Positions 4,190-7,252 of a stretch of DNA of 64,000 nt are shown piece by piece. A program made the translations under genes and the position numbers. The notes under the pieces were generated by a model. That model made no database searches. It was given only the letters and a program-made list of their open reading frames with translations, and was not told the origin of the DNA. Origin of the DNA: an uncultured Nitrososphaerota archaeon (lineage in GTDB: Archaea > Thermoproteota > Nitrososphaeria > Nitrososphaerales > Gagatemarchaeaceae); contig CAWISW010000003.1 of the NCBI GenBank assembly GCA_963838925.1, positions 384,001 to 448,000 of the forward strand, given 5' to 3'. Positions within the stretch are counted from its first letter, which is position 1. Every line of letters begins with the position of its first letter.

Positions 4190-4525
4190 ATGGTCGCAGA
4201 CTCAGGCCTGCCGGCTCCCAAGAAGATGCTAAGGCTCACCGTCATTGTCAAGGCCCGTGACTCCTACCAGGGGAAGCCGGTCGTAGACGTGCTGCTCTCG
4301 CTATACAAGAAGGTCGGCATCTCGGGCGCCACTGTGACTCACGCGGCAAGGGGCTACGGGGTCCGTGGCGTCGCTCGAGCAGACGTCCTGGGCCTCTCGG
4401 TCAACCTTCCCACGATAATCGAGACTGTGGCCGACAATGAGAAGGTCGACAAGGTCCTTCCGGAGATCCACCGGATGGTCGGGAATAACGGTCTGATTAC
4501 GACTTCAGAAGTGAACGTATACTGA
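4190..4525 (+). CDS. DUF190 PII-like protein (crcB partner)
   Basis: GISGATV...GYG and LP.IIE.V motifs; usual crcB neighbour. Confidence 0.85.
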   Translation: MVADSGLPAPKKMLRLTVIVKARDSYQGKPVVDVLLSLYKKVGISGATVTHAARGYGVRGVARADVLGLSVNLPTIIETVADNEKVDKVLPEIHRMVGNNGLITTSEVNVY

Positions 4526-4540
4526 CTAGGATGAGAAAAG

Positions 4541-4556
4541 TAGCGAGAGGTTGAAC
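4541..4556 (-). repeat. Degenerate remnant of tRNA-iMet 3' end
   Basis: TAGCGAG-AGGTTGAAC versus TAGCGAGGGAAGGATTTGAAC at 6091. Confidence 0.4.
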
Positions 4557-4643
4557 TGAGTCTTCTTGCGCTAGGCCAAACGAAGACTAGACTCTACCCG
4601 TTGGGACAATACTATAAGAAAAGCCGCTTGACTTACCCACTCA

Positions 4644-5252
4644 ATGCAACGAACCAATACTGTCTTGGCAGTCTTCGTAGTATTGGCCATTGCGCTCGCT
4701 TCTCTCTCCGCTCTGGAATACTCGATGCTCGGAACGCAAAAGACCACAACCATGTCAGAGATCGGGACTAGCGTTCTATCTACTACAACCGTTACCTCCA
4801 CAGTTACCACCTTGAGCGAAATCACGGTAACTGCTTCCTCGCTCCCTTACGTGTTGCCTCCGGACGAACATTGTTGCTTTGTGATTCAGACCGCTGACAA
4901 TGTTACTGGAACTACTTTTGCATACACAGAGTTGAACGGATCCATCCCAGCAGCCTCTTACGCCCTCGATAACGTAACCTCGTTCACCCTCGATAACGTG
5001 AGATTCAGCATCGTGGTATCGTTGGTCGGCCAAGCCCAACATGGACTTGGTTGTTACCTATGGCCGCCCACAGAAGCCGGATACGTCCAAGCGACCTTCT
5101 CAGACGGGACCTCTGAGCGACTGAATCCCTGCCTTGTGCTTGGAGCTCCAAGCATGGCGGTCTTGCTGACCAGCCACGTCAATCCTCAGGCAGGATTCCT
5201 CATATCTGGAGCTACGGGCGGCTTCTACTTCCTTGTGAGCACAACTCCATAG
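4644..5252 (+). CDS. Secreted/membrane-anchored Thr-rich hypothetical protein
   Basis: Signal/TM, T/S-rich linker, lower GC. Confidence 0.7.
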   Translation: MQRTNTVLAVFVVLAIALASLSALEYSMLGTQKTTTMSEIGTSVLSTTTVTSTVTTLSEITVTASSLPYVLPPDEHCCFVIQTADNVTGTTFAYTELNGSIPAASYALDNVTSFTLDNVRFSIVVSLVGQAQHGLGCYLWPPTEAGYVQATFSDGTSERLNPCLVLGAPSMAVLLTSHVNPQAGFLISGATGGFYFLVSTTP

Positions 5253-5317
5253 AGATTCGAACCTACAGAAGACAGGAGTGGAACGGCAAGAGCATACGCT
5301 CATCTTTTGATAATGAA

Positions 5318-5385
5318 TAGCGAGGGGTGGAGTTTCAGAGGGATATCCCTCCTTTGAACTTACGGCCGGATTACTCCGGTCACCC
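5318..5385 (-). pseudogene. Orphan 3' part of tRNA-iMet (T-arm plus acceptor) with two 21-nt hairpin introns
   Basis: Minus strand GGTG[ACCGGAGTAATCCGGCCGTAA]GTTCAAA[GGAGGGATATCCCTCTGAAAC]TCCACCCCTCGCTA; acceptor CCTCGCTA identical to the tRNA at 6091. Confidence 0.8.
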
Positions 5386-5419
5386 TTGTCGTCTAAATAC
5401 TCCGTAGTCCTATTGAATC

Positions 5420-6109
5420 ATGGAGTTTTCGTCGCTAACTCCTGGCCGGGCGGAGCTCCTTGGAGCCATGACAGGAGACAAGCGAGTTTTCAAACAGACC
5501 CATGGCTACGGTTTCTACAAAGGATACGATTTGTCGAAATATACCCGATACATTACTTCGATTTGTCTTGGAGCCGACAAGGAATGGGGGAAAAGGCTCT
5601 CGGGCATAGCTTTCAAAGAGTTTGGAATTAGAGGATCAATCTACTGGGATCGTGACGAATGGTTCTTGTTCACCAGCTCGGCGAGATTATTCAGAGGTTT
5701 ATCCCCTTACTATTCGCCTGAATGGAATGCTAGGAAATGGAGGGTCAGCCCGGCCATACTGGCGTCTTCGTTGGAGGCGAGATGTCGCTTCGTAAAGGGC
5801 TATTTCGACGCCGACGGCTATCCGTACTTCAATAAATCTAGAAACAAGATTCTGGTGCAGGTCAATTCTGTAAACAACCGGGGACTAATGGATGTGAGAC
5901 AACTTTTGGAAAGCATGGACTTCCATCCCGGACTCTACAAGCGCTACCGAGACAAAGCGGTTTGGGAGGTCACGATTCAAAGAAAGCAAGAAATCGTGCG
6001 GTTTTCCAGGGAAATTGGTTTTAGCATCGCCAGAAAGCAGAAACGCCTATTGCGAATGATAAATCGCAAATGGCCCGGCTTAATAGTGAGTAGCGAGGGA
6101 AGGATTTGA
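5420..6109 (+). CDS. Free-standing LAGLIDADG homing endonuclease (two motifs)
   Basis: AELLGAMTGD and FVKGYFDADG motifs; IGF...RKQ C-terminal motif; stop codon lies inside the tRNA-iMet T-arm. Confidence 0.85.
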   Translation: MEFSSLTPGRAELLGAMTGDKRVFKQTHGYGFYKGYDLSKYTRYITSICLGADKEWGKRLSGIAFKEFGIRGSIYWDRDEWFLFTSSARLFRGLSPYYSPEWNARKWRVSPAILASSLEARCRFVKGYFDADGYPYFNKSRNKILVQVNSVNNRGLMDVRQLLESMDFHPGLYKRYRDKAVWEVTIQRKQEIVRFSREIGFSIARKQKRLLRMINRKWPGLIVSSEGRI

Positions 6110-6187
6110 ACCTTCGCTCTGCGGGTTATGAGCCCGCCGGGATAACAACCAACGCCTTTTGGGCGCACCTGGCTTCCCCACCTCGCT
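6091..6187 (-). tRNA. tRNA-iMet(CAT) with ~22-nt D-loop intron (~6145-6166)
   Basis: A1:U72, GCGGG-CTCATAA-CCCGC anticodon arm, GAAGGTTCAAATCCTTC T-arm. Confidence 0.92.
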
Positions 6188-6293
6188 AAGCTGAAACACC
6201 CGATTTCTGACTCTTATATCCTTCTCGGAGTCTTGAGGTCCTAAGATTCGCGCGATTCTAGGATTGATGGGGCGACCAGAGAACAAGGCGTTT

Positions 6294-6545
6294 CTAGGAA
6301 GTCACGGGAGAAGGCGGAGTGACCTTCTTGGAACCAGGTTCCGAGATTAGTATGAAACCCGCCAAAATCAACGCAAATCCCACATATTCGAAAATGGGAT
6401 TGGAGCTTGTAATGCAATCTCCGGGAGGGGAAGCGCAACCAGTTAGAGGGAAGAATCTGCTCAGAAACAAGAATCCGCCTACCAAGAGGAATATTCCCGT
6501 CGCCAACACGATCCATCCCAAACGGCGGACCTGACTCTTCCTCAT
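6294..6545 (-). CDS. Small 2-TM membrane protein
   Basis: Two hydrophobic helices flanking a Cys pair. Confidence 0.55.
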   Translation of the reverse strand: MRKSQVRRLGWIVLATGIFLLVGGFLFLSRFFPLTGCASPPGDCITSSNPIFEYVGFALILAGFILISEPGSKKVTPPSPVTS

Positions 6546-6712
6546 GTCTCTAGAATCTTCACCCTCTAAGATAAGCGTGCGCCGAGCCTAAGACGCGGGC
6601 GGCGTCGTCCAGGCATTGACAGGAAGAATGTGACGTGCATCTACGAGAGCCCAACGTATCGCCCGTTTCGTTACGTGTGACTGTAAAGAAATGAGTGTGA
6701 AAAGAGCCTAAA

Positions 6713-7252
6713 CTAACTTCTCTGGAGAACTAGGCTCTCGGCATCCACCCCAACCGCAGCGTCAACGTCTTCCTTGAGCCGCCTGAGCCTTTGCACGTCG
6801 TGCCCCTTCCTGACGAAGCGCTTGACCTCCTCCTCGAAGGGCCTCGCCGTGTCTCCTTCCAGCATCTTGTCGGCGAAGCAGACTATCTTCTCCTCGAGGG
6901 TCCTAGGGACGTATTCCCCCGCGGGGAACTTTAGCGCGACAGCCTCCTCGTGCGAGATCCCCGCGCCGACGTGCCTCTTGACTATCTCCACGACGACACC
7001 GTCCACTCCTTCCTTCTGCAACAGCTCCGCCCCGACGTACCCGTGAGCCACCGTCTGTATCTGTGTCCGCCCGATGTCGTGGAGGAGCGCTCCCGCGACC
7101 GCGGCCTCCTGGTTGACGAGGTTCCCGCGCGACGCAGCCTTCTCGGAGAGCAGCCTCGAGATGGTGGCGCACGCCTGGCAGTGGCTGACGATGCGCTCGT
7201 TGCTCCCATACTTCTTGTGGAGGGCCAAGGCCTGCTGCGCGCTGGGAATCAT
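6713..7252 (-). CDS. HD-domain protein (TIGR00295-like)
   Basis: H...LLHDIG...HG...RHVGAG...ADK motifs. Confidence 0.88.
   Translation of the reverse strand: MIPSAQQALALHKKYGSNERIVSHCQACATISRLLSEKAASRGNLVNQEAAVAGALLHDIGRTQIQTVAHGYVGAELLQKEGVDGVVVEIVKRHVGAGISHEEAVALKFPAGEYVPRTLEEKIVCFADKMLEGDTARPFEEEVKRFVRKGHDVQRLRRLKEDVDAAVGVDAESLVLQRS

Follow-up and report, generated by a model that had tools for sequence, protein, structure and literature searches.

The nearest precedent for the arrangement reported here is an element in the tRNA-Thr(GGU) gene of Caldiarchaeum subterraneum, where Sugahara et al. (2012, PMC3293823) described a 1.8-kb insert with a putative recombinase between a 5' fragment of the tRNA and a complete tRNA gene. 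The authors' proposal is that attP and attB recombined, that the piece borne by the element altered the intron set of the gene, and that introns guard against further invasion (PMC3293823). A 2014 review, in which the word homing does not occur, attributes the idea of protection by introns to Randau and Soll and calls the mechanism of tRNA intron transposition still unknown (PMC4090602); the protection idea rests mostly on viral attachment (att) sites. We describe here a 64,000-nucleotide (nt) stretch of DNA from an uncultured Nitrososphaerota archaeon (GenBank assembly GCA_963838925.1, contig CAWISW010000003.1, positions 384,001 to 448,000 of the forward strand; hereafter the window), in which a free-standing LAGLIDADG homing-endonuclease gene lies between two alternative 3' parts of the initiator tRNA-Met (iMet) gene.

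As in the Caldiarchaeum gene, an insert separates a complete tRNA from the leftover of an earlier version, and the two differ in intron content (PMC3293823). Unlike the Caldiarchaeum element, which is presented in that paper (PMC3293823) as having a putative recombinase, a 5' leftover and a single locus in one population, the insert in the window has a LAGLIDADG nuclease only, its leftover is a 3' third, no att core is apparent, and the layout recurs at iMet across the whole nuclease family. Integration of SSV- or pNOB8-type elements likewise targets the 3' part of a tRNA gene, rebuilds the gene and leaves a tRNA-end repeat at the far border; in contrast to the integrase and the identical core at both borders that characterize such elements in the two papers, neither was found here (PMC3293823, PMC4090602). 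LAGLIDADG genes in archaeal group I introns were reported by Nawrocki et al. (2018, PMC6125680), with rRNA genes among the hosts listed. Our literature search, which covered few subscription journals and no supplements, provisionally returned no paper that links a homing nuclease to halves of archaeal tRNAs.

Further parallels come from more distant systems. In intronless homing of the T4 type, a free-standing nuclease cuts a nuclease-free genome nearby, flanking markers are co-converted, and the carrier escapes by site differences. SegB of T4 is reportedly a GIY-YIG nuclease of this kind, encoded in the phage tRNA gene cluster. The gene in the window resembles SegB in lying outside any intron or intein and in adjoining tRNA genes; unlike the phage-borne SegB, which is said to involve neither target-gene duplication nor introns, it encodes a LAGLIDADG protein, is located on an archaeal chromosome and comes with a replacement piece of the target gene. 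In the mitochondrial atp6 gene of Allomyces, insertion of a nuclease gene reportedly brings in a duplicate 3' end of the host gene. There, as here, the nuclease comes with a foreign gene end, the invaded gene remains complete and its native end persists as a relic, but the fungal cases are said to concern organellar protein genes, often with the nuclease fused in frame, rather than an archaeal tRNA with introns being toggled. Finally, the archaeal enzymes I-DmoI and I-Tsp061I are encoded on the sense strand within bulge-helix-bulge introns of rRNA genes. The predicted fold of our nuclease matches I-DmoI (template modelling score 0.74-0.77 on the target) and I-Tsp061I (0.68), and the logic would be the same in that an intervening sequence breaks the recognition site in the nuclease-carrying allele; unlike these enzymes, the nuclease is encoded outside the gene and on the opposite strand.

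In the following, G000 denotes this assembly (1.84 Mb, 87% complete), other G numbers the genomes of relatives, L numbers fetched loci, and X1, X3 and X4 runs represented by Logan contigs, none of which covers the whole stretch. The parts of the locus in the window are:

6187..6091, minus strand: complete initiator tRNA-Met gene, 97 nt, with a mature body of 75 nt without the D-loop intron.
6146..6167, minus strand: bulge-helix-bulge-like intron of 22 nt in the D-loop of the complete gene, predicted to fold as a hairpin flanked on either side by bulges of 3-4 nt.
6091..6115, minus strand: cassette-borne T-arm and 3' acceptor strand, GAAGG TTCAAAT CCTTC CCTCGCTA, intron-less and with a compensated stem.
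5386..6115, no strand assigned: inserted cassette of ~730 bp, made up of the replacement T-arm and 3' end, a short trailer, the antisense nuclease gene and a putative promoter region; bounds taken from uninterrupted alleles.
5420..6109, plus strand: free-standing, two-domain LAGLIDADG homing-endonuclease gene, 229 amino acids (aa), Pfam LAGLIDADG_3 (PF14528).
5385..5318, minus strand: displaced native 3' third of iMet, with T-arm GGTGG/CCACC, 3' acceptor strand and two introns.

The sequence-only reading of this DNA had proposed two 3' halves, one intron-less and one with two T-arm introns, with a LAGLIDADG gene between them, and all three parts are in place. The displaced piece reads GGTG(21 nt)G-TTCAAA(21 nt)T-CCACC-CCTCGCTA. 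Its two introns, given in that reading as lying at about 52/53 and 59/60, were confirmed at 5360-5380 (i1, T-stem, 52/53) and 5332-5352 (i2, T-loop, 59/60). They are 21 nt each, fold as hairpins, and do not recur in sequence elsewhere in the assembly, which is 87% complete.

In order to decide which of the two T-arms is native, we compared the locus with its relatives. The iMet genes of 9 genus relatives were read. The GGTGG/CCACC stem was present in all nine and GAAGG/CCTTC in none; among the genes compared, only the complete gene of G000 has the latter. In G012, G022, G017 and G008, the two-intron piece directly follows the variable loop, forming uninterrupted genes with 2, 3, 3 and 4 introns, respectively. 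Over 68 aligned columns, the displaced piece of the window shares 98.5% identity with the 3' part of the G012 gene, which is uninterrupted (L010:1501-1568), a match that is not due to chance. The uninterrupted allele was also seen in contigs of X1 and X4, where the two-intron piece runs directly into the variable loop. When 40 relatives were searched at the DNA level, matches were confined to the tRNA parts and none covered the interior of the insert. None of 400 other genomes from the class contains the GAAGG...CCTTC 25-mer (up to 1 mismatch), and no donor of this T-arm was identified within the class; the stem does occur in loci L055 and L061.

Judged by these comparisons, the distal two-intron piece is evidently the host's original 3' third and the proximal T-arm arrived with the insert. 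The insertion point is the boundary between variable loop and T-stem in the sole iMet gene, the 5' half of which is single-copy in the 1.84-Mb assembly (87% complete), and the native 3' third now lies ~770 bp downstream. We consider it very probable that the inserted cassette replaced this native third. Since a native two-intron relic is retained and the GAAGG/CCTTC stem is foreign to the genus, the locus is best read as one in which an intron-bearing half gave way to an intron-less half with a compensated stem, and on this point the sequence-only reading is supported. It had further expected relatives with an uninterrupted, three-intron tRNA. Such genes exist, with 3 introns in G022 and G017, 2 in G012 and 4 in G008, and the two-intron 3' part is in place in each; the expected number implied a D-loop intron that had not been stated for this locus, and the 22-nt intron at 6146-6167 was indeed found. 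The displaced fragment had also been considered as a plain att site of another tRNA. This is ruled out, as no other gene or copy in the genome matches the fragment.

The neighbourhood is conserved and consists of a 171-aa open reading frame (ORF), an HD-domain gene, iMet, a 111-aa ORF and a crcB-like gene (the name is ours and does not come from a family scan). In G012 and G022, the end of the tRNA lies 10-17 nt from the end of the 111-aa ORF. Positions 4400-6600 of the window have a G+C content of ~49%, compared to 61% for the genome; the region of low G+C also covers an orphan ORF and the upstream flank and does not mark the edges of the cassette.

The complete gene has the features of an initiator tRNA, namely A1:U72, an anticodon arm GCGGG-CTCATAA-CCCGC with three G-C pairs closing the stem, and the 3' end CCTCGCT-A. 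The Rfam tRNA model matches it with 31.5 bits (cut-off 29) and aligns CAT as the anticodon, and the predicted fold is a cloverleaf with an additional hairpin in the D-loop. In an Rfam scan of positions 4800-6800 (E up to 10), the tRNA alone was above threshold, and there was no group I intron. The D-loop intron at 6146-6167 is missing in G012, G022 and G017 and in a 96%-identical soil contig of X3; in the alignment of that contig (record 13), 22 nt are left out at 6145, the position of the D-loop intron. Within the genus, the intron set of iMet varies, with two D-loop sites, one in the anticodon loop and two T-arm introns used at 2-4 introns per gene, while the exons are nearly invariant despite this variation. 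ARAGORN calls the initiator gene (6090-6187) a tRNA-Pro(tgg), because the region of the D-loop intron is read as an anticodon arm. Several ARAGORN calls elsewhere in the genome, with introns of 250-1500 nt, look spurious as well; C3:750365-750724, for example, reads as protein-coding.

The 229-aa ORF between the two tRNA pieces matches PF14528 with E = 6.9e-11 (42.7 bits, cut-off 22.5). It is convergent with iMet, and its final 19 bases, comprising the last 6 codons and the stop, overlap the 3' end of the tRNA in antisense. The ORF is intact, starts with its own ATG and lies outside any intron or intein, antisense to the tRNA. It is also outside the bulge-helix-bulge introns, which are only 21-22 nt long, being on the opposite strand beyond the gene body. 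Both LAGLIDADG motifs are recognizable, AELLGAMTGD(20)K and VKGYFDAD(132)G; among 24 family members, D20 is conserved in at least 90% and D132 is invariant. An AlphaFold2 model (predicted local distance difference test score, pLDDT, 90.9; predicted template modelling score, pTM, 0.87) has two alpha-beta-beta-alpha-beta-beta-alpha halves. The best Foldseek matches were the intein nuclease domains of TliVMA and PI-PfuI, and I-DmoI (E 2e-10 to 4e-9), and a profile search of the sequences in the PDB returned the same inteins. With an open reading frame, retained acidic residues and an intact predicted fold, the nuclease looks functional.

A large protein search returned 28 homologues at 46-88% identity, all PF14528 and mostly metagenomic. 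Several of them end in ...SEGRI, the antisense reading of the tRNA 3' end. Loci of the family were taken by protein homology from genome and metagenome contig collections, and 15 distinct loci with at least 45% identity, G000 included, were left after duplicates had been dropped (L057 = L032, L054 = L055, L059 = L058). The record titles of L031 and L032 name Thaumarchaeota or Nitrososphaerales metagenome-assembled genomes; the remaining fetched loci are metagenome contigs. L062 and L065 are truncated on the iMet side and L063 on the side of the displaced copy. Wherever there was flanking sequence on the iMet side (13 of 13 loci), a complete iMet gene abuts or overlaps the stop of the nuclease gene convergently. 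Beyond the start of the nuclease gene, 13 of the 14 loci with flank have a second tRNA 3' end, which is clear in 11 and decayed in L052 and L053; in L062 it is unrecognisable. The cassette contains only the nuclease gene, measures 720-840 bp and keeps its layout down to 45% protein identity. In a more distant group (L066-L068, 38% identity), the nuclease gene is on the same strand, with a complete iMet-like gene on one side and, on the other, a T-arm fragment whose stem differs. Linkage of the HD-domain gene to iMet is common to all these loci (50-87% identical to that of G000), indicating that the locus is orthologous and that the insert is its variable part. As the loci are mutually related, counts over them are not independent trials.

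In eight loci, the T-arm linked to the nuclease and the displaced copy could both be parsed by program, with the following result:

G000: linked CCTTC, no intron; displaced CCACC, i1 and i2.
L031: linked CCTCC, i1; displaced CCACC, i2.
L032: linked CCTCC, i1; displaced CCTCC, i2.
L051: linked CCACC, i1 and i2; displaced CCTTC, i2.
L056: linked CCACC, i1; displaced CCACC, i2.
L060: linked CCACC, i1 and i2; displaced CCTTC, i2.
L061: linked CCTTC, i2; displaced CCACC, end of i1 and i2.
L064: linked CCTCC, i1; displaced CCTCC, i2.

At each of the eight loci, one of the two copies has the T-stem intron i1 and the other does not, the linked copy having it in 6 loci and lacking it in 2. The T-stem sequences of the two copies differ in five of the eight, and i2 is present in every displaced copy. 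Across loci, the T-arm introns are 19-24 nt and thus too small to encode anything. Homologous nucleases in L055 and L061 are also accompanied by the GAAGG/CCTTC stem of the window, which in L051 and L060 belongs to the displaced copy. In L052, L053, L055 and L058, the displaced copy is reduced to the 3' exon after 59/60. On this evidence the cassette appears to swap modules, with intron loss in G000 and gain of i1 in sister loci. The sequence-only reading had seen in the locus a mechanism for tRNA intron loss; loss describes the window correctly, but it is not the whole effect, as cassettes at sister loci bring introns in.

LAGLIDADG genes of a second, unrelated family (Pfam LAGLIDADG_1, 155-163 aa) lie convergently behind iMet in 4 of 22 genus relatives, namely G018 (L011, 963-1586), G006 (L014), G001 (L088) and G005 (L090), and are broken in G005. 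Downstream of each ~500-bp cassette come GTATTTA and, at +503 to +510, another copy of the 3' exon, which begins at the splice site of the T-loop intron (59/60). The trailer after this second exon differs from that of the proximal copy and is of the ancestral type in G018 and G006.

According to the nuclease-driven mechanism in full, to which we assign a probability of roughly 0.7, a free-standing homing-endonuclease cassette with its own T-arm module displaced the native 3' third. We infer that the nuclease itself drives the swap. It would cut nuclease-free iMet alleles in or near T-arm DNA, and the break would be repaired by copying the cassette-bearing allele; the near-invariant 5' body of the tRNA would provide homology on the left, and the displaced native half together with its flank would do so on the right. 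The T-arm of the cassette would itself escape cutting because its stem, its T-stem intron state, or both differ from the target. The 5' two-thirds of the host gene and the 3' third of the cassette together form a complete, foldable iMet, the native third remains as a probably unused relic, and the net outcome in the window is the loss of two tRNA introns. The difference between linked and displaced T-arm in 8 of 8 loci fits a probable immunity of the carrier allele, although survivorship against repeat-mediated deletion would produce an identical pattern.

Several features of the distribution point to a mobile nuclease gene. Neither 22 genomes of the genus nor 150 sampled genomes of the order yielded a close homologue, the order sample giving intein-type matches only; such patchiness is expected of a mobile gene. 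In L053, the flanking proteins are 92-94% identical to those of G000, yet the nuclease is only 60% identical and is linked to a two-intron T-arm, and different nuclease clades are found in closely related hosts at the otherwise conserved locus of HD-domain gene and iMet. A tree of the nucleases, made by a quick method and with modest support, groups them by the type of linked T-arm. The nuclease genes of L060, L061 and L064 are broken, which fits the known cycle of invasion, decay and loss. Besides the uninterrupted allele, X1 and X4 include contigs that cover parts of the nuclease gene; those of X1 match the window exactly, and those of X4 show 4-7 differences from it. In X3, a contig of 1556 nt has a cassette ~96% identical to that of the window, joined to a 5' part without the D-loop intron. 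The Logan contigs show that both alleles co-occur in X1 and X4, although they may come from different source species. The nuclease family was not found in a viral contig collection, plasmid and phage BLAST collections lying outside the search.

Beyond the displaced native third, the window contains remains of what looks like older activity at the same gene:

4644..5252, plus strand: orphan ORF, 202 aa, between the displaced third and the older decayed 3' end.
4541..4556, minus strand: decayed remnant of the T-loop and 3' end of the tRNA, GTTCAACCTCTCGCTA, the third copy at this locus, 16 nt past the stop of the 111-aa ORF.

The orphan ORF belongs to no Pfam family, and neither the genome nor the fetched loci gave a homologue. 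It is missing in G012 and G022, where the 111-aa ORF directly follows the tRNA end, and the third copy lies about where the tRNA ends in these two relatives. The orphan ORF resembles cargo left by a previous insertion into this iMet gene; together with the decayed third 3' end, it indicates that the locus was hit at least twice. L051 has two consecutive displaced 3' ends, one decayed (TCACC-GCTCGCTA, preceded by an intron-like hairpin) and one intact (GAAGG..CCTTC with T-loop intron), which suggests serial invasions as in the window.

Several observations weigh against the nuclease-driven mechanism. The word homing reflects anatomy and distribution, cleavage itself being presumed. The left edge of the displaced copy varies: seven loci have it at tRNA position ~41-49, L061 within i1, and L052, L053, L055 and L058 at position 60; one fixed site of cutting and insertion therefore fails to explain the loci unless later deletions occurred. 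The displaced copy of L031 retains ~11 nt upstream of the T-stem intron site and, if the target were centred on that site, might still be cut. The difference between copies could also reflect survivorship, as identical direct repeats would delete the cassette by recombination. Moreover, the nuclease-free relatives G014 and G009 carry intron-less T-arms, so intron-less alleles exist without the cassette. The sequence-only reading did not expect the intron-less 3' half in relatives that lack the nuclease. In its letter this expectation fails, as G014, G009 and the full gene of G020, all nuclease-free, have intron-less T-arms; in substance it holds, as all three keep the native GGTGG stem. In G020 (L007, 129-1614), a two-intron iMet 3' piece has been displaced by a 1.3-kb insert with ORFs of 142 and 276 aa and no nuclease; the proximal T-arm is the intron-less one with the native stem, and the displaced piece retains the trailer found in G014. 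The two cargo ORFs have no Pfam family, and one weak match to a PHROG family of unknown function was all that was returned. Together with the similar orphan ORF of the window, this insert means that insertions at iMet do not always bear a nuclease.

An account based on an integrase draws partly on the same inserts. The cassette could be the remnant of an integrase-type integrative element of the SSV or pNOB8 kind, or could have been moved in trans by an integrase, the attP having held the intron-less 3' part of the tRNA and the nuclease being a passenger. Integration into the 3' part of a tRNA, with reconstitution of the gene and a leftover repeat, is the classical archaeal pattern as laid out in PMC3293823 and PMC4090602. 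Such repeats surround toxin-antitoxin-like cargo at tRNA-Ser and tRNA-Gln of G000, cargo other than nucleases occurs at iMet (the G020 insert, the orphan ORF at 4644-5252), and the LAGLIDADG_1 cassettes of G018, G006, G001 and G005 are bordered by a near-exact 13-14-nt repeat of the tRNA 3' end, with a different first base in G006 and G005. However, there is no integrase or recombinase in or beside the cassette, the neighbours being the orphan ORF, an 82-aa membrane-like ORF and the HD-domain gene. The sole annotated gene of the insert is the nuclease; the other ORF of at least 60 codons, an 81-aa frame at 5386-5631 that was not family-scanned, overlaps it in another frame. No att core is present either: the two tRNA pieces share exact runs of 9 nt at most, the longest being located at the far 3' end, and the overlap at the junction is at most 1 nt. 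For comparison, tRNA-Ser of G000 carries an exact repeat of 52 nt. A constant, nuclease-only layout of 720-840 bp down to 45% identity would be unlikely for random decay products of an integrative element, and two unrelated LAGLIDADG families at this one gene, as well as the lack of a relative in the viral collection, speak against an integrase. On balance, we regard the integrase account as unlikely.

The sequence-only reading had offered a long-range or alternatively spliced tRNA as an alternative. In this version, both 3' parts are used: a long transcript or trans-splicing would join the 5' two-thirds to either T-arm, producing two iMet isoforms. In its favour, the distal piece is undamaged here, both of its introns form hairpins in the predicted fold, and split and permuted tRNA genes occur in other archaea, as covered in the review PMC4090602. 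Yet the proximal gene has all its parts and a predicted cloverleaf fold, no bulge-helix-bulge pairing was seen that would skip ~730 nt, and the DNA between the halves encodes an antisense protein gene. The sequence immediately upstream of the distal piece, GACGACAAG, differs from the variable loop, and no complementary leader was seen there. Displaced copies are, moreover, decayed or truncated in L052, L053, L055 and L058 and at 4541 of the window. The alternative is thus unsupported, and we consider two isoforms very improbable. Alternatively, the 3' part of the tRNA could have been duplicated in tandem within this lineage, one copy then undergoing loss of its introns and compensatory drift, with the nuclease gene arriving independently. 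Direct repeats of tRNA ends can arise by replication slippage or unequal recombination, but this account is hardly credible, because GAAGG/CCTTC lies beside nucleases of other lineages (L055, L061) and is displaced, and presumably native, in L051 and L060, marking it as a pre-existing allele rather than a product of local drift, and because 13 of the 14 loci with flank repeat the arrangement of the three parts.

A further idea may tentatively be put forward, which we hold to be possible but doubtful. The bulge-helix-bulge introns of the T-arm would be one half of a two-part homing element: the nuclease, encoded outside the gene, would recognise the uninterrupted T-arm at the intron site, and repair would copy the immune module, either intron-bearing or recoded. 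Nuclease lineages of opposite specificity, directed at alleles that lack the T-stem intron or at alleles that have it, would then chase each other through the Nitrososphaerales, driving gain, loss and reshuffling of introns. Hints in this direction are the toggling of i1 in 8 of 8 loci and the starts of the displaced copies at ~41-49, near 52/53, or at 60, the site of the T-loop intron. If the idea were true, the arms race would explain the fast turnover of non-canonical tRNA introns, for which the review gives the mechanism as unknown (PMC4090602).

In the window and the sister loci, one small nuclease gene is linked in the DNA to T-arm modules that can be exchanged and that vary in intron content, and the corresponding alleles before insertion are available in relatives. 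The cassette suggests a route by which archaeal tRNAs may lose and gain introns. Targeting of the essential initiator tRNA through its 5' body, which is near-identical among the compared loci, would offer a selfish gene a possible path across species, and the family, if active, would represent a new set of LAGLIDADG enzymes. The element also misleads annotation, as the ARAGORN call of tRNA-Pro illustrates.

A candidate signal for expression of the nuclease was read by eye:

5392..5399, plus strand: TATA-box-like word, TCTAAATA, 21-28 nt upstream of the nuclease ATG.

Words of the TAAATA type occur at the corresponding end of the cassette in L052, L053 and L061 and in the LAGLIDADG_1 cassettes. 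These words hint at TCTAAATA being a candidate archaeal promoter of a leaderless nuclease mRNA.

Elsewhere in G000, nine matches to PF14528 were found in small open frames, six of which, including the one at iMet, are within ~200 nt of a tRNA gene. The other five tRNA-adjacent ORFs are C1:284831-285100, C2:55584-55775, C2:217968-218249, C3:45283-45516 and C3:45999-46151. A search with blastn-short found no duplicated tRNA pieces at these five. Their neighbours are tRNA-Cys, tRNA-Asp, tRNA-Gln and one tRNA that is flanked on both sides, and tRNA genes in general may be hot spots for nucleases in this genome.

Two other tRNA genes of the assembly are associated with repeats of their own 3' parts. 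At tRNA-Ser(GGA), C1:64476-65479, an exact 52-nt repeat of the 3' part encloses a cassette of ~870 bp, with ORFs that were judged by eye from their translations to be PIN-like (154 aa) and AbrB-like (82 aa). At tRNA-Gln(CTG), C1:252161-254504, there are three further copies of the last 13-14 nt, 440-1300 bp apart, which resemble a stack of small inserts, one of them with a PIN-like/AbrB-like pair.

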